Made by a program: the position numbers and the translations under genes. A stretch of 63,043 nucleotides of DNA, filler included, from Jimgerdemannia flammicorona (taxonomy: Eukaryota): assembly GCA_003990765.1 (NCBI GenBank). It is 3 parts of 3 records of this genome, joined end to end, with 100 filler letters (N's around TTAATTAATTAA, not from the genome) between each part and the next. Parts side by side here need not be neighbours in the genome. Positions count along the whole stretch, not along the records: positions 42,103 to 63,043 come from RBNJ01001563.1; 2 more parts are not named here. One strand, written 5' to 3'. Shown piece after piece: positions 9,513-61,608 of the stretch. The notes below the pieces were generated by a model, which worked only from the letters and a program-made list of their open reading frames with translations, did not search any database and was not told the origin of the DNA. How positions within the stretch are numbered: position 1 is the stretch's first letter; every line of letters begins with the position of its first letter.

Positions 9513-9543
9513 GTTGGGGTCTCTATTACAATATTCTTTCAAT

Positions 9544-14098: not shown

Positions 14099-15121
14099 TG
14101 TGATGAGTAACAGAATTATACCATCAAAATTATAAATTAGCCATATACCATATTTAGTACATTAAGCAACCAAGACTGCTTTACTGTATCAATCTGTATA
14201 ATTAGCCAGAGATACCAGAAACAGTATGTTTATCTGTACTGAGTAGGTATACTATGTATACTGAGTGGGTATACTGTACTGAGTGGGTATACTATACTAT
14301 CCAGGAATACTTACTATAGATAGCAATCTATAGTTAGTAATATAGTAATCAGATAGCAACTATAACTATATAAAATACCCCAGAGATAAGAGTGAATAAA
14401 CCTCAGTCTGAAATTCAGAATACATTTCAACTCCAGTTTACTTTCCAATATAAAGAAGAGTCTGAAATTTAAAGCAAAAGACAAGTCTATCTACTATACT
14501 TTGAGAGGAACTCTATAGCTACTGCTAGGAGATTGTGAGCTTACTTTCTACTCTGGTCCACTTTCTAATACAAAGAAGAGTTTGTTATGTTTTTAGTTTA
14601 CTTACCAGATAAGTCTGAAGAAATCTGCCAAGTTTGAGAAAGAACTTTACTGCTATTTGAGTAATCTACCACTTAAGGAATAAGCTGTCATTTTCAAGAA
14701 GAATCTGTATTCTCAGAGAGCTCTATAGGAACTTACCATAAGTTAGTCTTCTGATACAACTTCACAGTAGAGCCAGTCTATGACATAACTCTATACAAAT
14801 GAAGCCAGTCTTGATATAACTTGCCAAGAATCTACATCTGAGTTATCCCTACTATCCAAGTTATTTAAGTTATTTGTTCATTCTTAGTGAGCCCAATTTA
14901 GAAGAATCTGCATCATTTTCTATTTCCAGTAAGCTGCTAATTTAGGAGAATCTGTACCAAATTGAGTTATCTGTTAGAAATTACATACTTTTGGAGATTA
15001 CTATCACCTAAGAAGGAAATTACTAAAATTGCCAGACTGCTATATATAAGGAAACTGCTGCACTATATAGAGATCATCATGCAGAAATTATATAAGCATT
15101 ACTTTATACTCACATAACACA
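14099..15121 (+). repeat. ~1 kb LTR-like dispersed repeat, possibly a solo LTR of a third family
   Basis: Begins TGTGATGAGTA and ends TACTCACATAACACA; about 14560-14850 matches the reverse complement of about 34235-34530; no TSD found. Confidence 0.5.
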
Positions 15122-15159
15122 AACTTTGAAATATACTTTTGATCTATTTATTGAAGAAA

Positions 15160-20952: not shown

Positions 20953-21052
20953 NNNNNNNNNNNNNNNNNNNNNNNNNNNNNNNNNNNNNNNNNNNNTTAA
21001 TTAATTAANNNNNNNNNNNNNNNNNNNNNNNNNNNNNNNNNNNNNNNNNNNN
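20953..21052. other. Artificial contig spacer
   Basis: 44 N + TTAATTAATTAA (stops in all six frames) + 44 N. Confidence 0.97.
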
Positions 21053-25298: not shown

Positions 25299-27359
25299 TG
25301 TAAGAGGGTTACTTTTTAGGGTGACCATTATGTAGTTCTGGAAAGGTTTTCTGGATATTCTGGATATTCTGGAAGACCGTTTTCTTATAGTCAAGATCAA
25401 TTTCGTATGGAGTACGTCCTCTATGCTTATTGATTTCAAGATCGGGTTGATGTCTCAACCAAAGTCCTTTTTTGGACTAGTTCTGGATGTTCAGGATTTT
25501 CCATATTTCAGGAAGTTCAAGAAACTAAGACCAGCTTAGTTGAATTGGTGTATCGCTGCAGACAATACCCAATTAGGAAATTTCGTGACGTGGTTAGGAA
25601 TGGGAGCGGATTTACTTAAGAGTAGTTTGTGGGTTATAGAATAGGTTTATTTGCTATTCATGATATTGCTATACTAGAAGTAGTTGTGTGAAGAGATATT
25701 GTGGGGAAGTATTTAGAAATATTCTTGTGTATTTGAGTCTGTTCAAGTCTGAGATTCTGAGGTCTGGGGGAGGGGGTATTTATACTAGTGAGGGGCTATC
25801 TGGACTATGCTAGATATGGATATAGCACTAAGTGCCTTGCTGAGTCAGAATATAGTCATGTAGTACAAGTGTGATCTGATATGTCAAGAGATCGTCTGAC
25901 TGCTGAGTCAGTTCACAGTCACGTCGTACAATGCTAATCTAACTATACTATGACTGCTAGGCTATTTATGAGTTTAGGCACTATCTGGGTAGTCTTCGAT
26001 GATATCACCATCGATTGTATCATCTCTGATGAAGTAGTCATCTAGGAATAATGGTTTGTGGATTACTTCTCCTTGTTCGCTGAGGTAATAGTACATTGGA
26101 ACTTCGTCTCCATCTCACAGAATAGCATCGTCTGTCTCATATGCTGGATAAGGTATTGGTGAATGAAGAAGTAGTGCATCATCTTCACTTTCATCGGATT
26201 CGCTGTCTGCATACCTTCTATAGGTTACGGCACTGTGAGTTGCGAGGTTGTAGTATGCTGGCGGCTGTGGTTCATGTTGCTCGTACTCTGGTGGTGGAGT
26301 GGTTGGTTCGATTTTGAGGGTTGTCTGGAGGTACAGGTTGTGTTCTCCGGTCTCTTCATTGTAGTTGAAGTAATCAGGGGTGAATGCGAGTTGGTATTCA
26401 TGCCAGTGGTCATTGTCCCAATAAGTCTCGTATACTGTTATGAACTATTGTAAGTTTATTGGCAAGGTTGGCAGAGTGATCAGGGTTGGCAGAGATCCTT
26501 GACTAGAGGTCATGTCGGTATCAGAGGGATCATTGTCTTCTGCTTCATCTTCATCGAAGTAGATTATATCATAGATGTCCTTCATGGCGTATCCAACTTG
26601 GGGCATTTGCAGGATTTGATCATTAGGGTGTGAGAAGATTCTATCTGTAGTTTCGATGTACTCGAGGTACTTGTGGTTGAGTTCTTATATCATGTTATCG
26701 ATTTGGCCATAGGACAGGGTAGCAACCATTTCGCTGGTAGTGACTTGGAGGCAGGGAATAATGGTACTATACTCATAGAAGAGTTCTCGATGTTTGCGGG
26801 CGATGAGCTTCTAGTGTTGAGACATCTGGGTAATGTCTGTATCGTGGTGGTATTCAACCATGTCTTCCAGGAGGCGGCTGATCTGGTAGTAGCTTGAGAT
26901 TTGTCTGATTCGGTGGGCCTTGCTAAGCATGTTCAGAGCATTCCATCAGGCTTCCACGAAGTAGAGGGGTGCCAGGCTATGGATATTCATGAGGAGCAGA
27001 GGGGGTGTGGCTCAGTTGACAATGGCATTCCAAATGTCAGCGCGGATATGGTTGTAGATCTCAGTGGTCATGTTTGTATATTTGGAAGTTGTGGTTGTTG
27101 TTTGTTTTGGTTCTCTGATTCGACGTGTCTCGGTGCTCGGTATATATGCATTTGGTCCTGATTGGTATGATTCTGTTTGTGTAAATCTTGTATTCCGTGA
27201 CTTCGTATTGACTTAGCTTTGTGTGCTGTGACTTCGGTTTGACTCAGCTTCGTGATCAAGCAGGTGATTTCCAGGTTTATTCAGAGGTCGTGTGTGATTT
27301 CAGTGCCTTGTTCAGAGGGTGATGTATAATTTCAGTGACTTAGAGGTTGTGCGCTTACA
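25299..27359 (-). mobile_element. Solo LTR of Gypsy family B (2061 bp) inserted in the PLE pLTR
   Basis: Reverse complement of 49648-51678; TG...CA ends; 5-bp TSD GAGCC at 25294-25298 and 27360-27364; the empty site is visible at about 21635. Confidence 0.93.
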
Positions 27360-38800: not shown

Positions 38801-39130
38801 AGGTATTATGAGCTTTTCTCCTTTTCTAAGTATGATGTTGTCTAGTTTAAACTGTTTCCAAGTCTGGTTTATGATGGTGATTGTCCAGAGTTTAAGGTGG
38901 TTGGGTATCTTCCACTACTCAAGATAGCTGATTAATCTATAGTATAACTCCTTATTAATATTAAATAGTCTTGATGGGGGTATTTTGGAGTATTCTTGAG
39001 AGTATATCAGCATTGGCATTAGTTCTTCCTGGGTGGTACTTGACAGTACAGTTATACTCTTACAGTCTGTAGATTTATCTGACATATATTTCTTTGAGGT
39101 CAGGCCTTTTATACATGCTCCTCTATGTCT
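35879..39130 (-). mobile_element. Gypsy A 3' part: RNase H end, integrase, PPT and 3' LTR (35879-37420)
   Basis: YHPGRTNANAD, CDKCQK, IAIDIIGPL and a GPF motif; purine tract at 37421-37430 adjoining the LTR. Confidence 0.88.
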
Positions 39131-39295
39131 AAGCCACTAGGAGAGTAAGTATCTCAAGTTTTGGAGATTATAAATATAGGCTCCAAGGAGTGCCAACAGG
39201 TGTATCTCATCTCTTAGATATAGGAGTCCCACCTGGTCTTTTTGGTGTAGCCATAGCTTCTAGTTTCAGCAAGTTATAAAGATTCCAAGAATTTT

Positions 39296-40375
39296 GGGCA
39301 AGATGGCAAGATAGCAAGATAGCAAGATAGCAAGATGGCAAGATAGACAAAATGATAAGACAGGCAAGAGGGGTAAGATGGACAAGATGGGCAAGATGGG
39401 CAAGATGGTAAGATAGGCAATAGGGGCAAGATGGATAGACAATAAGATGGGTGATATGGGTAAGATAGGCAAAATAGGTATACAAGCAATACAGACAACA
39501 TGAGCAATATGAGCAACACAGATAACATGGACAACATAGGTAATATGGGCAATACAGACAGGCAAGACAGGTAAGATAGACAAGACAGGCAAGATGGATA
39601 AGATGACAAGATAGCAAGATAGGTGACATGGGCAAGATAGGCAGATGGCAAGATAGGTAACATAGACAAAATAGGCAAAATGTGCAATATAGACAATATA
39701 GACAACACAAACAACATGAGCAATACAGGCAATACAGGCAGGCAAGACAGGCAAGACAGGCAAGACAGACAAGATAGGTAAAATGGGCAAGACAGCAAGA
39801 TGACAAGATGGGCAACATGGGCAAGATAGGTAAGATGGGCAAGATGAGCAAGATGGGTAAGATAGGCAAGATAGACAAGATAGCAAGACAGCAAGATGGG
39901 CAACATGGACAAGATAGATAGATGGCAAGACAGGTGATATAGGCAAGATAGGCAAAACAGACAAAACAGGCAAAATGGGCAATATAGACAATATGGGCAA
40001 TATGGGTAGACAATATGAGCAATATAGATAATACAGACAATATGGGCAACATGGGCAATACAGGTAACATAGATAGGCAAGATGGGCAAGATAGACAAGA
40101 TAGACAAGATGGCAAGATGGGCAACATGGGTAAGATAGGGAGATGGTAAGACAGATGACATAAGCAAGATAGGCAAAATGAGCAAAACAGACAACATGGG
40201 CAATATAGGCAATATGGGCAATATGGGCAACATGGGCAATATGGACAGACAAGATGGGTAAGATGGGTAAGATAGGCAAGATGGGTAAGATGAGTAAGAC
40301 AGCAAGATAGCAATATAAGTAATATAGGCAACATGAGTGAGCAAGATGGGCAAGATAGGCTAGATAGGTAAGATA
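39296..40375. repeat. Degenerate 9-mer minisatellite (GGCAAGATG / GGCAATATG)n, ~1.1 kb
   Basis: Directly visible; accounts for the three overlapping low-complexity ORFs at 39207-40353. Confidence 0.92.
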
Positions 40376-40638
40376 GAAGATACTAATAGAGATAGGTCAG
40401 GTGTACTAGATACCAAATACTTGAGATGGTTGGGGCTCACAACCCATACCCACTGGGTGGGGCAGGCTGGGTAGGAGAATCTAGTTACTTGGGCAGTGAG
40501 GTTGCAACTTATATCCTAAAGGTATAAGGCTGAGTGAGTGTGAAGGTGGGTTGATATTGGAGTAGAATGGGGCTACTGATGTTATATGAGAATATGTGAT
40601 ATGTTATAGATAGTTAATAAATGAGGCTATAGCCTATA

Positions 40639-40698: not shown

Positions 40699-41002
40699 CT
40701 TTGGAGTTTAGAGTGTAGAATGGCCAGGCAAGAGTGGAATGGTCTGTTTGAATAGTGAAGTATTTCCCAACTAGGTAGTAGTGGAACTTATCTACTGCCC
40801 AAACTACTACTAAGTATTTAAGCTTGTATAACTCATAGTTCTGTTCTGCTCTGGGGATACCTTGTCTTGTATAAGAGATGGTATATTTATATCCATCTTT
40901 CTTCTGAGCTAAAACTGCTCCAAGTCCTATAGTACTTACATCTGTCTACAGGATGAATTTTAGATTCTAATCTGGTCTTCTGAGAATGGATGCTTGGGGA
41001 CC

Positions 41003-42002: not shown

Positions 42003-42102
42003 NNNNNNNNNNNNNNNNNNNNNNNNNNNNNNNNNNNNNNNNNNNNTTAATTAATTAANNNNNNNNNNNNNNNNNNNNNNNNNNNNNNNNNNNNNNNNNN
42101 NN
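42003..42102. other. Artificial contig spacer
   Basis: 44 N + TTAATTAATTAA + 44 N. Confidence 0.97.
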
Positions 42103-42105
42103 AAA

Positions 42106-42158
<53 letters not shown>

Positions 42159-43411
42159 TGAAGCAGAAGACAATGATCCCTCTGACACCAATATGATCTC
42201 TAGCCAAGGATCTCTGCCAACCCTGATCACTCTGCCAACCTTACCAATGAACTTACAATAGTTCATAACTGCATATGAGACTTATTGAGACAATGACCAC
42301 TGGCATGAATACTAACTTGCATTCACCCCCGATTACTTTAACTACAATGAAGAGACCAGAGAACACAACCTATACCTTCAGACAACTCTCGAGATCAAAC
42401 CAACCACTCTACCACCTGAGTACAAGCAACATGAACCACAGCCACCAGCATACTATAACCCTGCAACTCACAGTGCTGTAACCTATAGAAGGTACGTAGA
42501 CAGCAAATCCAATGAAAGTGAAGACAATACACCCATCCTTTGCCCACCAACACCTTATCCAGCATACGAGACAGACGATACTATCCTGTAGGATGGAGAC
42601 GAAGTTTCAATATACTATTACCTCAGCAAAGAAGGAGAAGTAATCCACGAACCATTATTTCTAGATGACTACTTCATCAGAGATGATGCAATTGATGGTG
42701 ATGTCATCGAAGACTATCCAGACAGTACCTAAACCCATAAATAGCCTAGCAGTCATAGTATAGTTAGATTAGCCTTGTACGACGTGACTGTGAACTGACT
42801 CAGCAGTCAGACAATCTCTTGACATGTCAGATCACACTTGTACTATGTGACTGCATTCTGACTCAGCAAGGCACTTAGTGCTACATCCATATCTAGCATA
42901 GTCCAGATAGCCCCTCACTAGTATAAATACCCCCTCCCCCAGACCTCAGAATCTCAGACTCGAATACACAAGAACATTCCTGAATACTTCTCCACAATAT
43001 CCCTTTACATAACTACTCCTAGTATAGCAATATCATGAATAGCAAATAAACCTATTCAATAACCCACAACCCACTCTTAAGTAAATCCACTCCCTGTTAG
43101 GTCCCACTCCTAACTCCATCACAAAATTTCCTAATTGGGTATTGTCTGCAGCAATACACCAATTCAACTAAGCTAGTCTTAGTTTCTTGAACTTCCTGAA
43201 ATACGGAAAATCCTAAACATCCAGAACTAGTCCAAAAAAGGACTTTGGTTGAGATGTCAACCTGATCTTGAAATCAATAAGCATAGAGGACGTACTCCAT
43301 ACGAAATTGATCTTGACCATAAGAAAATGGTCTTCCAGAACATCCAGAATATTCAGAAAACCTTTCCAGAACTATGTAATAGTTACCATAAAAAGTAACC
43401 CTCTTACAACT

Positions 43412-43423
43412 TGGTAGCAGCGG
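43412..43423 (+). promoter_or_regulatory. Primer-binding site TGGTAGCAGCGG, probably initiator tRNA-Met
   Basis: 3 nt after the LTR; resembles the complement of eukaryotic tRNA-iMet 3' ends (TGGTAGCAG). Confidence 0.75.
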
Positions 43424-45361
43424 TTTACAATCCAATTCTGCTTCAAAATGCTTCCTCACCCTGCTACAAACCCTTCTGAGAATTCCTACAAGTTGGTATA
43501 AAGCCCAACCTCTGAACTGGAATTTATCCTGAACTATCTGACAATCTGGAGAGAATTGAACCTGATGTACAAGAACAATTTGACCTCCACACCTGCAACA
43601 AGTGGAACAAACTTCATTCAAAGAAAGAAGTACTCAGGTTAAACCAGCAAATAGGTGAAACCCTATTCACTGAACTCCTTGCACTACACCCAGCAAGTCA
43701 AGACAAAGAAGGTCTTATTGAAGCCTTCTTTACTCTTCTCAACAAGAGTTTTGTCAGCTCTACAAATCCGAGTAACCTAGGATAACCAGCAGCAGTCTTT
43801 CTAGCCTTAGTTTCTCACAAAGCCCAAGCCTCTATAGCTAAGTGGCTCAACTCTACCAACTTTCACCACACCAGGACCAAGACTGCCTTATACTACTAAT
43901 TCCAGAACAGCAAGGCCCGCCATATCCTTAAAGAAGAAGCAAGAGAAACCCTTCATCAACTACCTGACCCCGAACCTGAAGCAGGCCCTGCTACAGCCCT
44001 ACCTGAATCTGAAACCAATACTGAACCTGAACTTAACTTTGAATTAAGTCCATCTGAAATCAGATATACAACTGATTCTGTCTACTTTGATACCAAGCAA
44101 ACCCAATTACACAGGGACCAAACCGAAGAAGAGGAGGAGTATCTCAGTGAATTTGATCCCAGATATATCACCGAAGGAGAAGTACCTCCATCAGGACAGA
44201 ATACACCTACACAGTAACAAACAGTTATCTATCAAGCCCTCACTCCAGATCCACAACTACTACTCCAGCAACTTACACAGACCCAAAGAACACCATCACA
44301 CTCCACACTAGTATCTCAAGTAGTACCAGTAACACCACTACCAGTAGTCCAACCATTACTGCCTTAGCTGAACAGATCCGACCTACCAAAAATCTGAGCC
44401 TACCTACCTTCAATGGTACTGTACAAGAAGTCCAAAGCTTCATTAGTATAGTTGATACTAACTTTGAAGCCAATCAATGGACCAATGAGCGAGTTGCCGA
44501 CTGTGTTCTGACAAACAATCAAGACCACACCCTGGAACAACTCTTTGCTACCACTACAGCCTATGTCCACCGAGTTGTTACATTCTTCCGAGGACCTGCC
44601 AAAGAATGGTGGCAAACCCTCTCTGAAAAACCCCTCACATGGGATACCAGACCTGCAGTAGTTGCCCAGAATACAGCAAACAATGCCCCAGATATGGAGT
44701 CCATCCTGCAGCCTCTGGACTCAAACAACTTATAATTGCCCAATACTGCAGCAAAACCATGATCGCTGAATCCCAAGTAAAACTCTGCAACCTCAAATTC
44801 AATATATATGGCAAAGAAGAATTCGAAACCTTCTGTACAAAACTTGAGTCACTCCTGAACACTGTTGGCCTAGGATACATTGCCAATGATGAAGCACAAA
44901 ATGGTACAAGAGCAGACCATTTGTTTGATGCTCTGCCTGAATGGCTTACTAGAAAAATCCAAGAACAAGGTCGCCCAGTTGGTTGTGATCACCAACAATG
45001 GTGCCTGGCAAGAATCAAGACTATGGTCAAGCGAATTCTAACAGCTGGACCAATTCTGCCCCGAAGGCAATTCAACAACAAGGAAAAGACTTGGACCAAG
45101 AAAGAAGAACCCAAGCATGAAGCATCTCGAGCTCCCTCCACATCCACCTCTTGGACACCCAGAAATCATGAACCCACCCAGCTAAGTACCTTCAAGAAAC
45201 TTACTGAAGGCGAAAGGAATGAACTTCAAAGAAGTGGAGCATGCTTTTATTGCCAAAAGACAGGACACATGGCCAGTGCCTGCTCTAACTGAAAACCCCA
45301 AACAGCAACATGAGCAACTGTCACCACTCTGCACTACCTCAACAACCTGACCACCAGAACA

Positions 45362-45769
45362 CTAGACTTTGTCAAGCTAAGACAAACTGCTAAGGCCCCA
45401 ACCAAAGAAAGTCAAAAAGCAGCTGGATATGACCTGTATGCAGCCAAAGAAGCTACAGTTTCTAACCGAGAAGTCAAACAAGTCTACACAGGAATCAGTA
45501 TCCAAATCCCTGAAGGACATGTTAGAAGAATATGCTGTCGCAGCAGCCTAGTGTTGAAAGAACTCTCAGTAGAAGGAGGAATCATTGATGAGGATTATAT
45601 AGGCGAAATTATTGTCCTCATCCGAAACCACAGTTGGACACCCTTCAAGATTCCTATTGGCTTCTGCATTGCCCAGATCCTATTCGAAAAAATCAAGTCA
45701 ACCCTGACAGTCAAAGAAGTTCCTAAACTATTGCCCACTATCTGAGGATCCAAAGGATTTGGCTCATCA
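45362..45769 (+). pseudogene. dUTPase domain within the Gypsy B polyprotein
   Basis: All five trimeric dUTPase motifs: AGYDL, RSSL, GIIDEDYIGEI, IAQIL, (R>*)GSKGFGSS; in frame with gag. Confidence 0.92.
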
Positions 45770-45949
45770 AACAAAGCCCCAGCCCAATCTACCATGAGCA
45801 AAGAAGAACAATTCTATAAGAAGATCGAAGATGGATATGTACCAAGTGGCTGATGCCCTCATGGTATTGGAATGTACTCTTCCCGAATGATTGACAATTA
45901 CTTCTCTTGTGTCAATGAACTGGCTCAAAGAAGAACCAACAGAAGAAAA

Positions 45950-48900
45950 AGGCTCCTACAACTGAAATCACTACCATCGGATCAGACAAACTGCTCACCC
46001 TTAAGGCTTTTGTCAATGGAGCACCTGTCAAGATAATGATAGACAGTGGCGCCTCAGGCAACTTCATCAATGAAGAGACAGCCAACAGACTCAAGGTCTT
46101 TACCTCTCCAGTACAGCAAACTCAAGCAGTTGCTACAGCTGATGGAACCTCACATATCATCAGCAAAGAAGTCCACAATCTACCCTTCCAAATTGGCGAC
46201 TACCGAGTATATGTTACCCTCCAAATCGTACCACTTCTTGACAATGAAATCATCCTTGGGACTCTATGGTTAAAACAAGAGAACCCCATGATTGATTGGG
46301 TAAACCATTCTCTGACCATCAAGAAAGGATGCCACAACTTCAAACTATAAGGCGAAAAGGACTCACTCAACTCTAGTGACCCTGGACCAAAGATCACCCA
46401 CATTAACAAGCTACAACTCAAAAAATTGGCCAAGAAATGCCCTCTCTTCGCCATCTCCATCCAACCATCCAAAGGAGAATCTGAGAACTCTGAAGAAGAT
46501 TTTTCCAAAGTTGATAGCCATGTCAGACCACTACTCTAGAAATTCCAAGACATATTCCCAAAGAAGCTCCCAAAAGGCCTACCTCCCAAATGAGCAGTAG
46601 ACCATATAATCAAGACTATCCCAGATGCCAAACCAGCCTTCAAGTCAATCTACCACATGTCTCCAAGAGAAATTGATATACTCAAGAAGGAAATCAACGA
46701 ACTTCTGGAACAAGGATTCATCAGACCCAGTGTATCACCCTATGGTGCACCAGTACTCTTCATTGTCAAGAAAGGAGGAGATCTGCGAATGTGCATTGAC
46801 TACCATGATCTCAATGAACAGATCATCAAGAACTGTTGCCTACTACCAAGGATCGATGAAATATTCAATAGGCTCACTAACCCACAATTCATGAGCTCCT
46901 TTGATCTGTGAAATAGTTACTGGCAAATTGCCATAAAAGAAGAAGACATCTACAAGACAGCTTTCTGAACTCACTATGGATACTTTGAGTTCCTGGTTAT
47001 GCCCTTTGGCTTAACTAATGCTCCAGCAATCTTCCAGACACTGATGAATACCATTCTGCATCCATATCTGGATAAATTCATTATTGTCTACATTGACGAC
47101 ATCCTAGTCTTCAGCAAAACTCTGGAGGAACATCTCGAACACCTTGAACTAGTACTACTGAAACTCCAAGAAAACTGACTCTTTGCAAAACTCAACAAGT
47201 GCGAATTTCTCCTGAAAGAAATTCAATTCCTTGGACACATTGTCACTCCAAATGGAATCAAAGTGGACCCCAGCAAAATCTCTGCAATCAAGGGTTGGCC
47301 CAGACCCAAGAAACTGAAGGACCTCTAGTCATTCCTGGGATTAGCAAACTATTATAGGTGATTTGTTGCCAACTTTGCTAAAATCACTACTGCCCTCATC
47401 TAAATGACCAAGCACAGCAAGAAACAAGAACAACCCTGAACCATGAAACAAGAGAAAGACTTCAACAATCTTGTAAATTGGGGACACAAGCAAGATATCA
47501 CCTTTCAAGCACTGAAGGATGCCTTGATAACCACTCCAGTACTTCAAGTAGCAAATTCTGCCCTACCATATGAAGTCACTACTGATGCCTCTGACCTAGC
47601 TCTTGGAGCAGTACTCATGCAAGAAGGACACCCTGTGGCCTATCACTCCCACAAGTTCAATGATGCTGAAATCAACTATGCAACTCATGAGAAGAAAATG
47701 CTAGCCATCGTAGACACTCTGATCAAATGGTGACCATATCTAGAAGGAGCACACTTCACTGTATTGACTGACCACAAGTCATTAGTCAACATCAAGACAC
47801 AGGCTACTCTTTCCTGAAAGTAAGCCAGATGGATGAAAGTCCTCACCAACTTTGACTATGAAATCCAGTACCATCCTGGCAAGGAAAATATTGTTGCCGA
47901 TACAATCTCCAGACTACCAATCGAAGAGGTTATCCAAACTCTGACCTTAGTTACTAACACTATCATGGAACAAATCATTGCAGCATGTGCTGATGATAAG
48001 AAAGCTCAAGCACTCTGAGAAATCCTAAATAGTGATGATGCTGATAAGCATATCTGATACAACCAATACAAACTCAAGAATAATGCTATCTACTACAAGG
48101 ACAGATTGTATGTCCCAAACAACCGAGACCTCCGAAGGACTATCCTATTCGAATACCATGATGCTCCTACAGCCAGACATTTAGGATTTGACAAATGCTA
48201 TGAAGTTATGTATCTCCCGGAACTTCTATTGGCCCTACATGGCAGATCAGCTCAAAACCTACATCACTTCCTGTGATGCCTGCAAACAAAACAAGTCCTC
48301 AATACTAGCAAAACCTGGCTTACTCCACCCTATCTCAGTACCATCTGCAAATTGGGAACAAATCTCCATGGACTTTATTGTATAACTACCCCGAACCAAG
48401 AATGGGAAAGATGCAATTGTTGTCTTTGTGGACTACCTCAGCAAACAAGCCCACTTTGTACCTACTACCACTACTGCAACGGTACCAGACATAGCCATAC
48501 TCTTGTTTAATAATATCTTCCACTATCATGGTCTTCCTAAGATCATTGTTAGTGATCAAGATCTGAAATTCACTAGCTACTTTTGGAAAGTCCTCCATGC
48601 ACACCTTGGAACAAAACTTGCACTATCTACAGCCTTTCACCCAGAAACTGATGGTCAAACTGAAAGAATGAACTGAACTCTGGAACAAATGCTAAGGAAC
48701 TATGTTTCCTATAGATAAGATGACTGGCATGAATACCTCACTGCAGTTGAGTTTGTCTATAACAATAGCAAGCAAGCCTCTCTTGGAATGACCCCATTCT
48801 TCACCAATACTGGACAAAATCTAAACACCTCTTTGACACTTATCTGAACCAATGAAGAACCCTCTACAGTTAAAGCTATTGAAGAATTCTTACTCCGAAT

Positions 48901-49425
48901 GCACAATTTAAGCCAGATTGCCATTGAGAATTTATCACGAGCTCAAGAACAACAATCACAGTACGTTAACCAACACCACCAAGAAGAAACTTTTGATATT
49001 GGAGAAAAAGTTCTACTAGATATCAGAGGATACTGAGTTGACAACCTCAAGCACAGACCATCTACAAAGCTGAACAGCAAGTTCATTGGACCATTTGAAG
49101 TCATTGCACAAGTCTCTCCAACCTCCTACAAACTGGTGCTACTGGATACCATTAAGATTCACCCAGTCTTTAATGTTCAACATCTCAAGCGATACAATGA
49201 CAATGATGATGAGCTATTTCCAAACCGAACCACCAAACCACCTGCACCTATTATCATTAATGATCAAGAAGAGTATGATGTTGAACAAATCCTCAACAAA
49301 CATGGCAACAAGAGCCACCCTGAGTATCTTGTCAAATGGAAAGGTTACCCAATCTACGATGCAACCTGGGAACCCAAGACCAATCTCTAGAATGCTACCG
49401 ACCTAGTTCAGGAATATGATTCCTT
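45950..49425 (+). pseudogene. Gypsy B pol (protease, RT, RNase H, integrase, chromodomain)
   Basis: ORF fragments starting at 46036, 46657, 47443, 47833, 48428 and 49136; chromodomain YDVEQIL...YLVKWKGY...ATWEP. Confidence 0.93.
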
Positions 49426-49647
49426 GAACAACTAGAACCAAATACTCCACACCTATCCATACATACTATATACTATCCTCCTGAACATTATAATTATTGC
49501 AAACCAAACCAAGAACTCAGCAAAACAAGACAAGAATACTGACCCTTTGGAAAAATAGCCAAACTGAAAGCAAGCCTATTCTCCCTGTACCACTGAACAA
49601 AATTAGAAGGCCCTGACAAGGACGTCGAAAGCTAAGAAGGGGAGAGT

Positions 49648-51678
49648 TGTAAGCGCACAACCTCCAAGCCACTGAAATCACACATCACCCTCTGAATAAA
49701 ATCTGGAAATCACCTACCGATCATGAAGCTGAGTCAAACTGAAGTTACAGTGCACAAAGCTGAGTCAATACAAAGTCACAGAACACAAGATTTACACAAA
49801 TGGAATCTTACCAATCAGGACCAAATACATATATACCGAGCACCAAGACATGTCGAATCAGAGAACCAAAACAAACAACAACCACAACTTCCAAACACAC
49901 AAACATGACCACTGAGATCTACACCTATATCCGTACTGACATTTGGAATGCCATTGTTAACCAAGCCACACTCCCTCTGCCCCTTATGAATATCCATAGC
50001 CTAGCACCCCTCTACTTTATGGAAGCCCGATGGAATGCTCTGAACATGCTTAGCAAGGCCCACTGAATCAGACAAATCTCAAGCTACTACCAGATCAGCT
50101 GCCTCCTGGAAGATATGGTCAAACACCACCACAACACAGACATTACCCAGATGTCTCAACACCAGAAGCTCATTGCCTGCAAACATCGAGAACTCTTCTA
50201 TGAGTACAGTACCATTATTCCCTGCCTTCGAGTTACTATCAGCGAAATGGTTGCTACTCTGTCTTATGGCCAAATCGATGACATGATACAAGAACTCAAC
50301 CAGAAGTACCTCGAGTATGTTGAAACCACAGACTGAACCTTCCTCCACCCCAATGATCACATCCTGCAAATGCCCCAAGTTGGATACGCCATGAAGGACA
50401 TCTATGATATAATCCACTTCGATGAAGATGAAGCAGAAGACAATGATCCCTCTGATGCCAACATGACCTCTAGCCAAGGATCTCTGCCAATCCTGATCAC
50501 TCTGCCAATCTTACTGATGAACTTACAACAGTTCATAACTGCATACAAGACTTATTGGAACAATGACTACTGGCATGAATACCAATCTGTATTCACTCTC
50601 GATTACTTCAACTATAATGAAGAGACTGGAGAACACAATCTGTACCTTCAGACAACCCTTGAGATCGAACCAACCACTCCACCATCTGAGTACGAGTAAC
50701 ATGAACCATAGCTGCCAGCATACTATAACCCCACAACTCACAGTGCCATAACCTATAGAAGGTATGCAGACAGCGAATCCAATGAAAGTGAAGACAATAC
50801 ACCCATCCTTCGCCCACCAATACCTTATTCAGCATATGAGACAGACGATGCTATCCTGTAGGATGGAGATGAAGTTCCAATATACTATTACCTCAGCAAA
50901 GAAGGAGAAGTAATCTGCGAACCATTATTTCTAGATGACTACTTCATCAGAGATGATGCAATTGATGGTGATGTCATCGAAGACTATCCAGACAGCATCT
51001 AAACCCATAAATAGCCTAGCAGTCATAGTATAGTTAGATTAGCCTTATACGACGTGACTGTGAACTGACTCAGTAGTCAGACGATCTCTTGACATGTCAG
51101 ATCACACTTGTACTACATGACTGCATTCCAACTCAGCAAGGCACTTAGTGCTACATCCATATCTAGCATAGTCCAGATAGCCCCTCACTAGTATAAATAC
51201 CCCCTCCCCCAGACCTCAGAATCTCAGACTCGAATACATAAGAACATTCCTGAATACTTCTCCACAATATCCCTTTACACAACTACTTCTAATATAGCAA
51301 TATCATGAATAGCAAATAAACCTATTCAATAATTCACAACCCACTCTTAAATAAATCCACTCCCTGTTAGGTCCCACTCCTAACCCCATCATGAAATTTC
51401 CTAATTAGGTATTGTCTGCAGCAATACACCAATTCAACTAAGCTGGTCTTAGTTTCTTGAACTTCCTGAAATACGGAAAATCCTGAACATCCAGAACTAG
51501 TCCGAAAAAGGACTTTGGTTGAGATGTCAACCTGATCTTGAAATCAATAAGCATAGAGGATGTACTCCATATGAAATTGATCTTGACCATAAGAAAATGG
51601 TCTTCCAGAACATCCAGAATATCTAGAAAACCTTTTCAGAACTATGTAACAGTTACCATAAAAAGTAACCCTCTTACA
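49648..51678 (+). repeat. Gypsy B 3' LTR (2031 bp), TATAAATACCCC at 51192-51203
   Basis: Direct repeat of 42157-43408; full-length match to the solo LTR; TG...CA ends. Confidence 0.95.
49905..51002 (+). pseudogene. LTR-encoded accessory protein of Gypsy B (up to ~365 aa, unknown function)
   Basis: ORFs at 49800, 50115 and 50370 share one frame. Stops at 50064, 50334 and 50697 are sense codons (CGA, AGA, CAA) in the other LTR copies. Confidence 0.8.
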
Positions 51679-52490: not shown

Positions 52491-53253
52491 TTTTTTTTTT
52501 TATTATAAAACTTTTTTTTATTATAAAACAAGTAGATAATAGAGGAATAGTTTAGAGTGAGATGTGATACTATTATAGCAGATATGAAGGTCAGCAGTAA
52601 GAGGTCAAAACAGAGGAAGCAGTAATCTTATGTAAATTTTTATGACAGAACAAAAGCAAGCGGAATAAAGTGTTTTCTGAAGCAAGGTGCAATAGATCTG
52701 CAACCTGCCCATGACACTACAATATGCAGTAGTCTTTATTCAAAATTGAGAACAAAGTTTGGGTAAATAAAGACATGGATCTAACCCCAGAATTCTAGAA
52801 GTAAAATAGTGCATAAGTACCTGAGCCTTACCCCAATCCAAACAATGGTCCAAATCAGGCTTCATCGATCTACACACATGATGGGCCATTAAAAACCTAA
52901 TATAGAAACAATCAGGAAAAGGTACTGGTCATGTGATCTAATGTTACACATACTATAAACAATGCCAAAAATGGAACTAGACCAATGACATATCACATAT
53001 TGTCATATGATTATTACTTATAGGTTTAAAAACCTAAAAATCATCAGCACCTAAAGGTGCAGGCATCAGGCCTAGAGCCTTGTGACCAGAGCAGAGTAGA
53101 GCCTTGGCACCAGAGTGAGCGAAGTGAGCAGAGGTAGACAGACATCACAGAGCATAGGTACATAGGTATCAGGCCTAGAGCCTCGTGCTGGAGGTTGTCC
53201 GGCAATTTTTCACATTTTTAAACATCACATGGCACATACAGGCAGTGTGGTCT

Positions 53254-55265
53254 TTAAGGAGGACTTTGAGCAAAACTGGTATTTGAGATGGTATTAAGAG
53301 CAGTAAAACCATTCTTCTGGGCAATGATAGGTCGTTGGGCAGTCGCAGAGAAACCAAAATGAAGCAAAGCAGTACATAGAGTCTTGTCAGGCTATTGATG
53401 TAGCCATTGGGCCATGTCATATTGGACGATAAGCAACAGGGGAGGGAAAGCAAAGTGGGGGATGGGGGGGTGGAAAATAAGGAGAGGTGTGAGAAGTGAA
53501 GTTCGGATCTCAAGCCAATCAACTGAACTCAATTGAGTAGTTACAACATCAACAGGATATCCTTTTCTGTAAACCAGAAACTTGGCCAAAGACTGACACT
53601 CATCAAGCCAATTATGGCAAGATGAGCAGAGTAGCAAAAGGTGGTGGACCTCATTCACAATACATAGATGGAGTGTCTTCCTAGGATGATTGCTCAACTA
53701 GTCAACAAACTGAGTACTATGTGGGAATTTGGCAAAGTGGCCCATACAGAATGGTGTGACTCAGATTTCCAGGTCCAAGTAATGGTATGGTCCAGTGGAC
53801 AAGACTTCTCATTTGATATGATGGTGTGGAGGATAATGACACCGAAGATTGCAGCCAAGTCCATAATTGTGGGTGTAAAGACAATTAGATCATTAATATA
53901 CTGGTGGAACTTTAGCCTGGCTTCAACAGCTCGGCTTAGCAGATGGTTAGACACTTGCAAGGTATACAACTCATGAGCGAAACCAATGAGGTTGGCGAGA
54001 TCCGGAGCACAATTAGTCTCTATAGCAATACTAGACACAGAGTGGAAGGAACTGATGGTGGATGTGAACGTCATATGAGTCATGACTATGCGAACAAGGC
54101 CGAGAACAGCTTCAAGTGGCAAAGAGCCAGAGGGGAAGGCCACTGTCAACAAAAAGATGAGGCAGTTAATACACTCATCTAATGTGATCCTGGTGTAGAA
54201 GACAGCAAAATCCCCAGTAGTGACGTAGTTGCAATCTGACACATCTAGGTAATCTGATCGAACCAGCTGTAACAGTTCAAGCATATCACGTAGAGGTGAA
54301 TAATATGAATAACCTATATTATGGCACAGATGGGCCAACCACAGATGGAGAAAGCAAGATAGGAAATATGAAATCTCGGTCATGGAAGAGTTAAAAGCAC
54401 CAACGATAGGACGCCATGCCACATGAGTCCCTTTGTATACCTTGGGCAAAGCATGAAACATGGGCATCTTACAATCACTGAGCTTCATGAGGTGTTCCCA
54501 AATTGGCATACAATTCTTGTCACCAATGCAGAACTTGAGTAGACCAAGCAGGTCTAATCTCACTGATTCCTTAACATTATCAATCATAGAGGGATCATTC
54601 ACATATACAGAATCATGAAGGAGGGACTGAAGACTGTCGAGATATAGAGTGCACAGAATTATGGTGAACCCCAGATTTTTGTCAGTAAGACAGACTGTAA
54701 AGTCATCATGAGCACAGATGCCTTTGAGAAGGTGACAGAACTTCTTTAGTATAAGCATGCCAGATATATTCATCATGGGTTGGATGGCTTGATTCAATGC
54801 AGTACTCATATGGAGCATAATTTGCATATTTTCCATACAGTATGGCAGTTGCCATTTAGATAGCACCCAGGCGGAGATCTCCAGGACATCGTCGGGATTA
54901 TCCATAGAGGTCCAGAAGGTGGCAAGGTCAAGATATCATTAAAATGATAACAATGAAATCAGATCAATGGTACTGTTCATCGAAGCCAACCTAGGGAGAA
55001 CAAACTTAGGGCCAAAGTTCAGCATATACATGAGCTCAGGGATAAGCCAAGGCAGAGGTATATCTGTAACAAAGCCCTTCTTGGTAAACATCTGAAACTG
55101 AGGGATGAAAAACTGACTTAAGTAGGAACCGAGAAGAGAAGACACAAAGGCAAAATCCTCAATTGGTGTCGAGGCTGCTACCCCACATAGAATGGGGACA
55201 TCTGGGCCAAACCACGCTGTTGGGAAGTCATAAAAGACTTCTGGACTGGGGACCTCTAGTTTTTT
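53254..55265 (-). pseudogene. PLE family 2 RT, left arm
   Basis: LNFGPKF, DKNLG, FHALPKVYK..WRPIV, TGDF..FYT, NCAPDLANL; largest open piece 53694-54905. Confidence 0.88.
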
Positions 55266-56404
55266 GACACTAGAGGATAGACATTGCTGGCATTATGCCA
55301 GACGACATGACATTTGGTGGCAGTACACTTGTTGCACTGCGGCACAAATGCTCTGGTGGCGCTCTTAGATAAGTGGCTTGAAGTCAATGAGTAGCTAGTC
55401 CTGGTAGAAGCAGAAGAAATGGATGGAGAAGGTGAAGTCTTATACGCTCACTTGACTTCTTTTACAGAACCCACTGTCATGGTAGGGGCTAGGGGACAAG
55501 AACCCTGGTGGGCCTTTGTAGACACACCAAGGTATCCAGAACAGCTACGGCAGTTTGGCACAGCAGAGGCCAAAGTCACATCCACCACCTTGGCCTTTCC
55601 TGCAGCCTCCACAGGCACAGCAGTAGAGGGTGGAGGGGTGGGGACACTCTTTTTCAGTTGGGTGGAACTGGTGGCAGCAGAAGCAAACATGTGTTTAGCA
55701 CCCGGAGTAACAATCTCGGGGTGCTTCTTAAGCTCCTCAACCATGGCTTTGCAGGTGGTGGCAGAAATCCCATCTTGCAGGGAGGAGGATACAGGGACAG
55801 TCAGGCAGACTGTAGCAGCCACAGCTTTAGCAGTGGCAGCAGTGGCAAGATGGCGAGATTGATATATGACAACATCAAAACCATGGAGCAGAAACAAGTT
55901 CATCTTGGCTCAGTCAGTAGCAGCGAGAATAGCAATATTCTTACTAACCTCTTGAGTGATATCAATAGATATCCCAAAGAAGTTATGGGTATCAGAAGAC
56001 CCACCCATAGTCTTGTCAATTTTAGCATACTGGTCCTTAGCATGCTGGGCAGTAGCATCTTGATCAGAGACCACAGCCTCAATTGCGACAGTGGGGCAGT
56101 ACTTAGCTTCTGCCGAAGCAGTAGTAAGGGCAGCAGCATGCTGTTCCTCCAGAAGGAGGGTGATCACAGCAGAAACCTTCTTGGAAGAAGTAAACTTCCA
56201 ATTGGCAACTTGGGCTCTCAAAAAGTCAGCATAGTGCTCATGCGCAGTAGTAACCTCGAGAGTATGAAGCACTCTGGTGTAAGCAACATGGAAGCCAGCA
56301 GGGACCTCGACAAGTGAAGCAGCCAAGAAGATGGCCAGGTCATCAAAGTTCGCCAAATTGGCGAAAGAAGCTTTGGGGACAGCAGCATCGCCATCTAAAT
56401 TCAT
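55256..56404 (-). pseudogene. PLE family 2 ORF1, left arm
   Basis: Fragments 55910-56404 and 55448-55903; Cys/His motifs near the C-terminus. Confidence 0.75.
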
Positions 56405-57649
56405 ATTATCTGTTATGTTGTATATTATAAAACAAGTAGATAATAGAGAAATAGTTTAGAGCGAGATGTGATACTATTATAGCAGATATGAAGGTCAGTG
56501 GTAAGAGGTCAAAACAGAGGAAGCAGTAATCTTATATGAATTTTCATGATAGAACAAAAGCAAGTGGAATAAAGTGTTTTTCGAGGCAAGATGCAATAGA
56601 TCTGCAACCTGCTCATGGTACCACAATATGCGGTGGTCTTTATTCAAAATTGAGAACAAAGTTCAGGTAAACAAAGACACAGATCTAACCCCAGAATTCC
56701 AAAAGTAGAATGGTGCATAAGTACCCAAGCCTTGCTCTGATCCAAACAATGGTCCGAATCAGGCTTTATTGATCTACATACATGACAAGCCATTAAAAAC
56801 CTGATATAGAAACAATCAGGAAAAGGTACTGGTCACATGATATAATGTTACACATACTATAAACAATGCCAAAAATGGAACTAGACCAATGACATATCAC
56901 GTATTATTACATGATTGTCACTTATAGGTTTAAAAATGTGAAAATCACCAGACAACCTCCGGCATAAGGCTCTAGGCCTGATGCTTGCATACCTACACTC
57001 CATGATGCCTGTCTACCTCTGCTCGCTTTGCTCACTCCAGTGCCAAGGCTCTACTCTGCTCCAGTTACAAGGCTCTAGGCCTGACATCTGTATCTTTGGG
57101 TACTGACAATTTTTAGGGTTTTAAACCTATAAGTGACAATCACATGACAATATATGATATGTCATTGGTCTAGTTCCATTTTTGGAATTATTTATAGTAT
57201 GTGTAACATTAGATCATGTGACCGGTACCTTTTCTCAATTGTTTCTATATCGGGTTTTTAATGGCCCATCATATATATAGATCGATGAAGTCTGATTCGG
57301 ACCATTGTTTGGATCAGAGCAAGGCTCGGGTACTTATGCACTATTCTACTTCTGGAATTCTGGAATTAGATCTGTGTCTTTGTTTAGCTGAACTTTGTTC
57401 TCAATTTTGAATAAAGACTACTGCATATTGCAGTGCCATGGGCAGATTGCAGATCTATTGCACCTTGCTTTAGAAAACACTTTATTCTGCTTACTTTTGT
57501 TCTGTCATGAAAATTTACATAAGATTACTGCTTCCTCTGTTTTGACCTCTTACTGCTGATCTTCATATCTGCCATAACAGTATTACATCTTGCTCTAAAC
57601 TATTCCTCTATTATCTACTCATTTTATAATATACAATATAACAGATAAC

Positions 57650-58797
57650 ATGAATGTAGATAGTGATGCTGCCGTCCCTAAAGCTTCTTTCACCGATTTG
57701 GCGAACTTCGATGACCTGGCCATCTTCTTGACTGCTTCGCTTGTCAAGGTCTTGCTGGCTTCCATGCTGCTTGCACCAGAGTACTTCATACTCTCGAGAT
57801 TGCTGCCATGCATGAGCACCATGCTGACTTTTTGAGAGCCCAAGTTGCCAATTGGAAGTTTACTTCTTCCAAGAAGGTTTCTGCTGTGATTGTCCTCCTT
57901 CCAGAGGAACAACATATCACCGCCCTTACTACTGCTTCAGCAGAAGCTAAGCACCACGCCACTGCTGCGATCGAGGCTGTGGTCTCCAATCAAGATGCTG
58001 CTGCCCAGCATGCTAAGGACCAGTATGCTAAAATCGACAAGGCCATGGGTGGGTCTTCTGATGTCCATAACTTCTTTGGGATATCTATTGATATCACTCA
58101 AGAGGTTAGTAAGAATATTACTACCCTTGCTACCACCGATAGAGCCAAGATGAACTTGTTTCTGCTCTGTGGTTTTGATATTGTCATGCATCAATCTCAC
58201 CATCTTGCCACCACTGCTACTGCTAAAGCCGCAGCCACCACAGTTCACCCAACTGTCCCTGCATCCTCCTCTCTGCAAGATGGGATTTCTGCCACCGCCC
58301 ACAAAGCCATAGTTGAGGAGCTTGAGAAGCATCCCGAGATCATTACTCCAGGTGCTAAATGCATGTTTACTTCTGCTGCCACCAGTTCTACCCAACCGAA
58401 AAAGAGTGTCCCCACCCCCCCACCCTCTACTGCCATACCTGCAGAGGCTGCGGAAAAGGCCAAGGTGGTGGATGTGACTTCAGCCTCTGCTGTGCCGAAC
58501 TGCTGTAGCTGTTCTGGATACCTTGGTGTACCTATGAAGGCCCACTGAGGTCCTTGCCCCCTAGTCTCTGCTGTGACAGTAGGTTCTATAAAAGGGGTCA
58601 AGTGAGCATATAAGGCTTTGTCTTCCCCATCTATTTCTTCTGCTTCTACCGGGACTAGCTGCTCATTGACTTCGAGCTGCTCATCTAAGAGTGCCACCAG
58701 AGCATTTGTGCTACAGTGCAACAAGTGTACTGCTGCCAAATGTCATGTCGTCTGGCATAATACCAGTGATGTCTGTCCTCTAGTATCAAAAAACTAG
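57650..58797 (+). pseudogene. PLE family 2 ORF1, right arm
   Basis: Fragments 57650-57835 and 57808-58548, continuing to CNKCTAAKCHVVWHNTSDVC and TAG at 58795. Confidence 0.75.
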
Positions 58798-60803
58798 AGG
58801 TCCCCAGTCCAGAAGTCTTTTATGACTTCCTGACAGCGTGGTTTGGCCTGGATGTCCCCATTCCACATAGGGTAGTGGCCTCAACACCAATTGAGGATTT
58901 TGCCTTTGTGTCTTCTCTTTTCGGTTCCCACTTAAGTCAGTTTTTTGTCCCTTGGTTTCGGATGTTTACTGAGGAGGACTTTGTTACAGATATACCTCTG
59001 CCTTGGCTTACCCCCAAGCTCATATATATGCTGAACTTTGGCCCTAAGTTTGTTCTCCCTGGGTCAGCTTCGATGAATAGTACCATTGATCCGATTTTGT
59101 TATTGTCATTTCAACAACGTCTCGACCTTACCACCTTCTGGACCTCTATGGGTAATCCTGACGATGTCCCAGAGATCTCTGCCTGGATGCCATCTAAATG
59201 GTGACTGCCACACTGTATGGAAAATATGCAAATTATGCTCCATATGAGTGCCGTGTTGAATCAAGCCATCTGACCCATGATAAATATATCCGGCACACTT
59301 GTATTAAAGAAGTTCCATTGCCTTCTCAAAGGCATCCGTGCTCATGATGACTTTATAGTCTGTCTTACTAACAAAAATCTGGGGTTTGCCATAATTCTGC
59401 ATACTCTATATCTCAACGATCTTTGGTCCCTTCTTCATGATCCTGTATACATGAATGGTCCCTCTACAATTGATAACATTAAGGAATAAGTGAGGTTAGA
59501 CCTGCTTGGTCTACTCGAGTTCTGCATTAGCGACAAGAATTGTATACTGATTTAGGAACACCTCATAGAGCCCAGCGATTGCAAGATGCCCATGTTTCAT
59601 GCTTTGCTCAAGATACACAAAGGGGCTCATGTGGTATAGTATCCTATCATTGGTGCTTTTAACTCTCCCACAACTGAGATTTCACATTTCCTATCTTGCT
59701 TTCTCTATCTGTAGTTGGCCTATCTGTACTATAATGTGGGTTATTCACATTATTCACCTCTATGTGATATGCTTTAACTGCTATAGCTGGTTCAATCAGA
59801 TTACCTAGATGTGTCAGATTGCAACTATGTTGCTACTGGGGATTTTGCTGCCTTCTACACCAGGATCACATTAGATGAGTGCATTGACTATCTCACCTTT
59901 TTGTTGATGGTGGCCTTCTCCCCTGGCTCTTTGCCACTTGAAGCCATTCTCGGCCTTGTCCGCATAGTCATGACTCATATGACATTCATATCTGCCATTG
60001 GTTCCTTCTGCTCTGTGTCTGGTGTTGCTATGGGGACTAATTGTGCCCCGGATCTCACCAACCTCATTGGTTTCACTCATGAGTTATGCACCTTACAAGC
60101 ACCCAACCATCTGCTAAGCCAAGCTGTCAAAGCCGGGCTAAAGTTCTGCTGATATATTGATGATCTAATTGTCTTTACACCCACAATTATAGACTTGGCC
60201 ATGATCTTCAGTGTCATTTATCCTCTGTACCATCGTATCAAATGGGAAGTCTTGTCCACCGGACTGTGCCATTACTTGGACCTGGAAATCCAAGTTGCAT
60301 CATTCTGTACAGGCCGCTTTGCTAAATTCCCACATAGTACTCAGTTTGTTGACTGGTTGAGCAGTCATCCTAGGAAGATGCTCTATCTATACATTGTGAA
60401 TGAGGCCTGCTGCCTTTTGCTACTCTGCTCATCTTGCTGTGATTGGCTTGATGAGTGTCAGTCTTTGGCTGAGTTCCTGGTTCACAGAAAAGAATACTCT
60501 ATTGATGTTGTAACTACTCAATTGAGTTCAGTTGATTGGCTTGAGGTCCAAACTTCACTTCTCACACCTCCCCTTATTTTCCACCCCCCTATCCCCCACT
60601 CTACTTTCCCTCCCCCATTACTTGTCATCCAATACGATATGGTCTGATGGCTACATCAACAGCCTGACAAGACTCTATATATGTACCACTTTGCTTCATT
60701 TTGATTTCCCTGTGACTGCCCAATGACCTATCATCACCCAGAAGAATGGTTTTACTGTTCTTAATGCCGTCTTAAATACCAGTTTTGCTCTAAGTCCTCC
60801 TTG
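58788..60803 (+). pseudogene. PLE family 2 RT, right arm
   Basis: GVAMGTNCAPDLTNL, YIDD about 60153, YLDL, thumb region; no GIY-YIG domain downstream. Confidence 0.88.
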
Positions 60804-61608
60804 AAGGCTGTACCACCTGTATGTGCTGTGCAATATTTAAAAACACAAAAAATTGCTGGACAACCTCTGGTGCGAGGCTCTAGGCCTGATGTCTATATAC
60901 CTATGCTCTGTGATATCTGTCTACCTCTGCTCGCTTCACTCACTCTGGTACCAAGACTCTACTCTGCTCTGGTCATGAGGCTCTAGGCCTGACACCTGTG
61001 TCTTTGGGTGCTGATGATTTTTAGGTTTTTAAACCTATAAGTGATAATCATGTGACAACACGTGATATGTCATTGGTCTAGTTCTGTTTTTGACATTGTT
61101 TATAGTATATGTAACATTAGATCACATGACTGGTACCTTTTTCCAATTGTTTCTATATCAGGTTTTTAATGACCTGTCATGTGTGTAGATTGATGAAGCC
61201 CAATTCAGACTATTGTTTGGATCAGGGCAAGGCTCAGGTACTTATATACCATTCTACTTCTGGAATTCTGAGGTTAGATCTATGTCTTTGTTTACCCAAA
61301 CTTTGTTCTCAATTTTGAATAAAGACCACCACATATTGTGGTGCTATGGGCAGGTTGCAGATCTATTGCACCTTACTTCGGAAAACACTTTATTCTGCTT
61401 GCTTTTGTTCCATCATGAAAATTCACATAAGATTACTGCTTCCTCTGTTTTGACCTCTTACTGCTGACCTTCATATCCACCATAACAGTATCACATCTTG
61501 CTCTAAACTATTCCTCTATTATCTACTCATTTTATAATAAAAAAAAAAAAATAATAATAAAAAAAATAATAAAAAAAAAATAATAAAAAAAAATAAAAAT
61601 AAAATAAA

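Follow-up and report, generated by a model that had tools for sequence, protein, structure and literature searches.

Accessory genes inside a long terminal repeat (LTR) are a hallmark of complex retroviruses. The superantigen gene sag of mouse mammary tumour virus (MMTV) is an open reading frame (ORF) in the U3 part of the LTR, and nef of the human and simian immunodeficiency viruses (HIV/SIV) and bel2/bet of the foamy viruses overlap U3. This work concerns an ORF of 365 codons found in a comparable place in a degraded Ty3/Gypsy retrotransposon of Jimgerdemannia flammicorona (assembly GCA_003990765.1). The window, i.e., the whole stretch of DNA that was analyzed, is 63,043 nucleotides long, filler included, and the element lies on the last of its three contigs (RBNJ01001563.1). 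An earlier note, made from the sequence alone, had drawn attention to the frame and had likened it to MMTV sag, nef, and bel2. The likeness is one of position: by analogy with the retroviral U3 genes, the ORF may be described as a protein-coding frame on the sense strand that the LTR carries upstream of its presumed genomic promoter and that is doubled with each integration. It is not one of kind. The predicted protein shows no relation by sequence or family to Sag, Nef, and Bel (no Pfam match at E<=1), it has no hydrophobic anchor, and the element that carries it is a chromovirus without env.

Among retrotransposons, the ORF may be compared with the additional ORFs (aORFs) of plant elements such as Ogre, Retand, and Athila and with ORF0 of Retrosat2 and RIRE. 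Like these, so far as the accessible descriptions go, it is a lineage-restricted orphan of unassigned function that travels with gag-pol, and like ORF0 it evolves faster than pol. The difference lies in where it is found. ORF0 of Retrosat2 is described as an internal-region frame that precedes the gag-pol ORF (PMC3485330), and the accessible text of a review of plant aORFs (PMC7264820) does not contain the phrase "in/within/inside the LTR". Plant-type aORFs are expected in the internal region between the LTRs, whereas the ORF described here is complete within a solo LTR bounded by a target site duplication. In this regard, the closest parallel to an autonomous gene unit housed by an LTR is the 5S RNA gene with its internal promoter that is present in each LTR of the Cassandra elements, which are terminal-repeat retrotransposons in miniature (TRIM; bioRxiv 10.1101/2023.07.14.548913). 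There too, the LTR harbors a gene unit, one that can be transcribed independently (as may hold for the present element), and every LTR copy therefore has it. Also, the Cassandra gene is an RNA gene transcribed by RNA polymerase III, whereas the present one is a 1.1-kb protein ORF, presumably transcribed by RNA polymerase II.

The backbone of the element is of a kind already described from fungi. Chromodomain-bearing Gypsy elements with a dUTPase are reported from Postia placenta (PosPlaTy3), Phanerochaete chrysosporium, and Tuber melanosporum (Tmt1) (PMC2864245), and they resemble the present element in domain content (gag, dUTPase, protease, reverse transcriptase, RNase H, integrase, chromodomain). 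Their occurrence in basidiomycetes and Tuber is consistent with a fungus of soil or roots as the host. In the accessible part of that article, an LTR-borne ORF is not mentioned, and a figure legend gives "add. ORF" with no location. A full-text literature search, partial in coverage since it did not extend to subscription papers such as the description of Tmt1, returned no report of a retrotransposon with a protein ORF in its LTR.

The frame is real and lies wholly within the LTR. A solo LTR on the second contig, 89.4% identical to the 3' LTR of the element and ending in identical termini, is flanked by a 5-bp direct duplication, GGCTC, at 27364-27360 and 25298-25294. It follows that everything between TGTAAG and CTTACA, the ORF included, is LTR, and that the ORF travels inside it. 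This result and the alignment of the copies bear out two proposals of the earlier note, that a frame of 366 codons (counting the stop) lies inside the LTR in the sense of gag-pol and that it is duplicated with the LTR and survives in solo LTRs. The three copies that had been listed were all found, with two corrections: the copy in the 5' LTR is partial owing to the contig join and not to biology, and the solo copy is on a different contig. A search of the window for further copies or relatives of the ORF gave none beyond these three.

All three copies are interrupted by stops, most of them peculiar to one copy, as had been claimed. Those of the 3' LTR copy fall at residues 54, 144, 265, 269, and 319 (bases 50064, 50334, 50697, 50709, and 50859). 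The 3' LTR and solo copies align without a gap across all 1,098 bases, and residue 319 is the sole stop column they have in common. Even there, the codons differ, the element having TAG in each of its LTRs against TGA in the solo LTR. Each is one G>A step from TGG, and P0001, one of two homologs considered below, has W at that residue. The remaining stops of the 3' LTR copy correspond to sense codons elsewhere. Residue 54 is CGA in the solo copy and R in P0002, the second homolog; residue 144 is AGA in the solo copy and R in P0001; and residues 265 and 269 are CAA and CAG in both the solo and the 5' LTR copies and Q in P0001. At position 50334, A rather than T (giving AGA) was found in every covering contig from four public runs (31, 11, 4, and 14 contigs). 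By comparison, stops number 7-32 per copy in the remaining five frames (13-32 in the other two sense frames), and 4-24 of them are shared between copies. When the bases of the ORF were shuffled 2,000 times, a frame contained 18.6 stops on average and never five or fewer. Since the stops are copy-specific and shuffled sequences do not reproduce so few of them, the ancestral frame must have been open, and this neither by chance nor through its G-poor composition. All three window copies are dead, C>T/G>A decay having inactivated them once they had been inserted. The start of the ORF is corroborated by P0002, which begins with the same MTTEIY. The seeming ATG that stands in frame at 49800 is a product of decay, since one copy has ATG there and the other ACA.

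The ORF also carries the signature of coding sequence. Its composition varies strongly with codon position (chi2 68.6, p=8e-13; chi2 77.2 in the solo copy), and three-base periodicity is absent from the parts of the LTR upstream (p=0.38) and downstream (p=0.75) of it. The pattern is close to that of the protease-RT-RNase H and integrase regions of the element itself, with G at 0.26/0.10/0.14 over the three positions and third positions rich in C. Between the 3' LTR and the solo LTR, there are 0 gap events in the 1,098 bases of the ORF and 5 in the other 903 bases, and among contigs of the family (thousands, from four public runs), the best 12 of 29 indels, ranked by support, all lie outside the ORF.

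Substitutions among the three window copies have to be read differently. They are 91-98% transitions, and their number matches the divergence of the 5' and 3' LTRs (93.5% identity over 1,254 aligned bases), so they represent decay after insertion, and a comparison of nonsynonymous and synonymous rates (dN/dS) across the LTR copies, which had been suggested as a test, is uninformative for these three. The inferred C>T changes (n=68, 13 of them at CpG) are spread alike over CpA, CpC, and CpG contexts, and the decay is therefore not plain deamination of CpG. Divergence between copies is 9.8-11.3% in the ORF part, versus 4.0-7.5% in the promoter/R/U5 part.

More distant comparisons come from protein databases. 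Word-indexed searches covered 5.8 billion proteins and a profile search 1.84 billion representatives; the queries were the decayed copies from the window, not an ancestral consensus, which makes the searches somewhat less sensitive. Exactly two relatives were found among the 5.8 billion, P0001 and P0002, both from public metagenome-derived protein sets and both open, and the profile search produced no other. P0002 (128 amino acids) is 84% identical to the 3' LTR copy and 87% identical to the solo copy. P0001 (247 amino acids) is more diverged, with identities of 154/243 to the 3' LTR copy and 158/244 to the solo copy (~63%). It matches at least one of the window copies at 173 of 246 residues (70%), with 210/246 positives. 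It has the C-terminus YPDSI in common with the ORF, its only gaps are two of 2 residues each, in frame, and W, R, Q, and Q stand at positions where the window has stops. Conserved residues are clustered along P0001 (the observed variance was reached in 10 of 5,000 permutations), an acidic linker at residues 175-196 being variable and blocks such as that around residues 237-318 being conserved. Replacements relative to P0001 are conservative in a proportion of 0.48, against 0.30-0.32 for random mutation, and so high a value was reached in 0-2 of 1,500 simulations.

Other routes to relatives added little. Two weak hits among the 1.84 billion representatives, P0003 and P0004 (E ~3e-4, six stretches each), are internally repetitive and were rejected as matches of composition. 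A search for longer or fused forms of the protein yielded 878 candidates, none significant, and a cluster look-up gave no added members or names. Scans of metagenome contigs, viral contigs, and genome contigs did not find the DNA of either relative. The LTR family itself is very abundant in metagenome runs from soil and roots, in which the LTR is covered tens of times more deeply than the adjacent internal region.

The predicted protein is very acidic (isoelectric point 4.05-4.28; 60-64 D+E versus 17 K+R), with ~9% Tyr and no conserved Cys. Its acidity is marked in the C-terminal ~200 residues, where Tyr and Pro also abound. No hydrophobic segment was detected in the undecayed relatives (maximum KD19 0.57-0.97), and the maximum 19-residue hydropathy is 0.6-1.6, so the protein was neither an envelope protein nor a membrane protein like Sag. 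An env-like ORF3 of the Gypsy/Athila type was also rejected, as the ORF lacks a hydrophobic stretch and lies downstream of the polypurine tract, inside the LTR. Derivation from the gag-pol of the element was ruled out, no similarity to it having been found. A sequence search of the Protein Data Bank (PDB) gave no match at E<=1. Perhaps the acidic C-terminus, studded with aromatic residues, is better suited to activation or to interaction with chromatin than to a structural or envelope role, though this is speculation. A structural model built on an alignment of four family members hints, with low confidence, at helices in residues 1-141 and little order thereafter.

Two groups of promoter-like motifs, recognized by motif scan, flank the ORF (Table 1). 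The heptamer TGA[CG]TCA, which we take to be a bZIP (AP-1/Gcn4-type) site, occurs 3 times in the LTR, as against ~0.24 expected (an estimate from base frequencies), each time within one of the two promoter-like regions. In the upstream candidate module, TATATA is 75 nt 5' of the ATG. In the downstream one, TGACTCA is 126 nt upstream of TATAAATA, the TATA box that had been placed downstream of the frame and is indeed present there, and TATAAATA in turn is ~120 nt before the first AATAAA. Since TATAAATA followed by AATAAA makes a classical U3/R arrangement, the latter region is presumed to contain the U3/R boundary, which would place the ORF in U3. The ORF is inside the LTR and upstream of TATAAATA in any event; the second TATA-like box, upstream of the ORF, permits other layouts. 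A comparison of the two modules with each other found no likeness beyond 7-9-mers.

Several observations weigh against a gene or make it harder to recognize as one. Codon differences between the 3' LTR and solo copies (35 synonymous, 55 nonsynonymous, 10 involving stops) betray no selection. The excess of conservative replacements relative to P0001 must be set beside a control for decay: 24 of the 55 replacements between the 3' LTR and solo copies (0.44) are also conservative, a proportion compatible with neutrality (reached in 145-185 of 1,500 simulations), and the test is therefore less decisive than the raw count implies. In neutral simulations, a frame of 247 codons stayed open in 0.6-1.6% of cases at 61% identity and in 1.8-5.5% at 70%; given these rates, and given that protein databases hold only open frames, the openness of P0001 is by itself weak evidence. 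P0001 starts at an internal Met (residue 115), and the part upstream may be broken or absent. It and P0002 are the only relatives outside the window, both come from short contigs, and both were compared as protein only. No Pfam family was matched at E<=1 by any of four members of the ORF family. The AlphaFold2 (AF2) model, from an alignment of four rows, has a mean predicted local distance difference test score (pLDDT) of 30.9, too poor for a comparison of folds, and the Atlas model of P0001 has a pLDDT of 0.39, with all structural neighbors at TM <= 0.30. Finally, two matches to TATA[AT]A in 2 kb are about what chance would provide, so a separate promoter for the ORF is weakly based. Taking these points together with the ancestral openness, the periodicity, and the diverged open relatives, we put at about 0.6 the probability that the frame is a once-coding orphan gene of 365 residues borne by the LTR.

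The ORF could instead have entered the LTR by template switching, as a captured host orphan gene or retro-copied mRNA. Such a passenger would have ridden on a burst of amplification without serving the element and would be open only because it arrived recently. Such an origin would suit an ORF that has its own start, its own stop, and possibly its own promoter, that is unlike gag-pol, that matches nothing in Pfam or PDB, and that has only P0001 and P0002 as relatives among the 1.84 billion representatives. Recency, however, is difficult to reconcile with the lineage of P0001, which after ~30-37% divergence in protein still keeps 247 codons open, has no gaps but in-frame ones, and is conserved in clusters. 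Also, a composition by codon position equal to that of pol argues for a long residence in the element. A free-standing host copy did not come to light, although there was no host genome in which to look for one. We consider capture of this sort unlikely.

A second possibility concerns the layout of the LTR rather than the reality of the gene. If genomic RNA began at the TATATA at 49830, the ORF would lie in an R region of 1.5 kb and would be the first cistron of full-length RNA, a 5' additional ORF resembling ORF0/ORF1 of plants that recurs at the 3' end and is not part of U3. In favor of this arrangement, TATATA precedes the ATG by 75 nt, CCAAT and two TGAGTCA lie farther upstream, and the first AATAAA 3' of the ORF is at 51315. 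The 5' LTR, however, would then have an efficient poly(A) site at a distance of 1.5 kb from the cap, and most genomic RNA would presumably be truncated there; and TATAAATA at 51192, ~120 nt before AATAAA, has the appearance of the classical U3/R arrangement. This layout seems quite improbable. It is very improbable that there was no gene, the long frame having come from a G-poor, A/C-rich sense strand and the database proteins being artefacts of gene callers on repeat DNA: although the sense strand has a GC skew of -0.2 to -0.3 and the window holds other long frames driven by composition (e.g., three overlapping ones of 361-391 codons at 39210-40396 on the minus strand, without a Pfam match), shuffles of the ORF's own composition, the many stops in the other two sense frames, the lack of three-base periodicity in flanking LTR of the same composition, and a ~63% identical relative that aligns end to end with in-frame gaps only all stand against it.

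If the frame was once a gene of the LTR, one can imagine how it might have served the element. The ORF comes after the 5' end of the LTR and before the TATAAATA/AATAAA module, at which genomic RNA most likely has its start and its end. It would then be reverse-transcribed within U3, doubled into both LTRs at each insertion, and retained in solo LTRs. The LTR, as may be proposed with modest confidence, would be a unit of two promoters. The upstream module would drive a monocistronic mRNA of the ORF, ~1.5 kb long and ending at the LTR's own poly(A) signal, and the downstream module would drive genomic RNA. The mRNA could arise from either LTR and also from solo LTRs, and its product would act in trans for the element, as a transactivator or an anti-silencing factor. 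In its full form, the model makes each LTR, solo LTRs included, a self-contained gene read by RNA polymerase II for an acidic, trans-acting regulator of the element, retrovirus-like but evolved independently in a fungal chromovirus. The model in this form is distinctly unlikely to be right in every part. Were it true, the retrotransposon would spread, besides itself, hundreds of expressible copies of its own regulator.

The population genetics of a gene in the LTR are out of the ordinary. Such a gene is present in two copies per insertion, survives recombination between LTRs, and rises in dosage with the number of solo LTRs. If its product regulates transcription or silencing, then a directly testable regulator encoded by a retrotransposon would be at hand in a soil or root fungus. 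Annotation pipelines define LTRs as non-coding, and long LTRs elsewhere may be worth inspecting.

Table 1. Coordinates of the element, its LTRs, and the ORF within the window
Feature	Position	Strand	Remarks
LTR-borne ORF, 3' LTR copy	49905..51002	+	365 codons plus stop; 5 internal stops
ORF copy in solo LTR	27071-25974	-	6 internal stops
ORF copy in 5' LTR	from residue ~174 to 42732	+	last ~192 codons; 4 stops
Candidate promoter module 1	49730..49835	+	TGAGTCA 49730 and 49761, CCAAT 49811, TATATA 49830; putative, from motif scan
Candidate promoter module 2 and poly(A) signals	51066..51355	+	TGACTCA 51066, TATAAATA 51192, AATAAA 51315 and 51350; putative
3' LTR	49648..51678	+	2,031 bp, TGTAAG...CTTACA; read directly and aligned to solo and 5' copies
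Solo LTR	25299..27359	-	2,061 bp; second contig; orientation opposite to element
5' LTR	42155..43408	+	3' part only; start lost at contig join, poly-A run before it
Primer-binding site TGGTAGCAGCGG	43412-43423	+	after 5' LTR
Internal region	43409..49647	+	gag with CCHC knuckle, dUTPase, protease, RT, RNase H, integrase, SH3, chromodomain
Polypurine tract AAGAAGGGGAGAG	49634-49646	+	just 5' of 3' LTR
Degraded Ty3/Gypsy element, chromovirus type	third contig	+	
Window joins	20953-21052 and 42003-42102		N44-TTAATTAATTAA-N44 linkers; window is three contigs strung together

The carrier is a Ty3/Gypsy chromovirus, as seen from the order of its pol domains (protease, RT, RNase H, integrase) and from its C-terminal chromodomain. 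Pfam matches along 43301-49600 include dUTPase (4e-30), RVT_1 (3.6e-32), RT_RNaseH (1.7e-30), SH3_Tf2-1 (7.3e-15), and Chromo (3.5e-14), as well as protease families, Integrase_H2C2, and rve. Coding sequence in the internal region is scattered across several frames, with many stops and changes of frame. The dUTPase domain (45314-45742, plus strand) lies between gag and protease, and this stretch of 143 codons is still open. The hallmarks of chromovirus LTRs are all present: TG...CA ends, a primer-binding site, a polypurine tract, and a short target duplication, the last at the solo LTR, since the 5' end of the full element is lost. The solo LTR differs from the 3' LTR in having a ~32-bp tandem duplication of a unit containing CACTGAAATCACACA at its 5' end (27359-27290, minus strand).

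With three contigs strung together in the window, adjacency across its two joins is not genomic. Runs of poly-A are found at contig ends beside the joins (20926-20952 and 42103-42156). The 3' flank of the Gypsy element is directly adjoined by a large inverted repeat (52512-61549), with arms of ~4.4 kb (52512-56950 versus 56941-61549) that are 87-90% alike and that contain open frames of 270-413 codons without a Pfam match. Short RT/RNase H remnants of other Gypsy-like elements occur on the minus strand at 3643-3861 and 40730-40945, with 45% and 38% identity, respectively, to the pol of this element. A tandem array in an AT-rich stretch at 6412-7421 has a period of 179 bp and 3-4 copies at 84% identity. 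Strand asymmetry is extreme in 8000-21000 and 39000-40400, with a GC skew of +0.35 to +0.57 over 13 kb. The three overlapping minus-strand frames mentioned above lie in a purine-rich stretch and look like pseudo-ORFs driven by composition in other decayed repeats.

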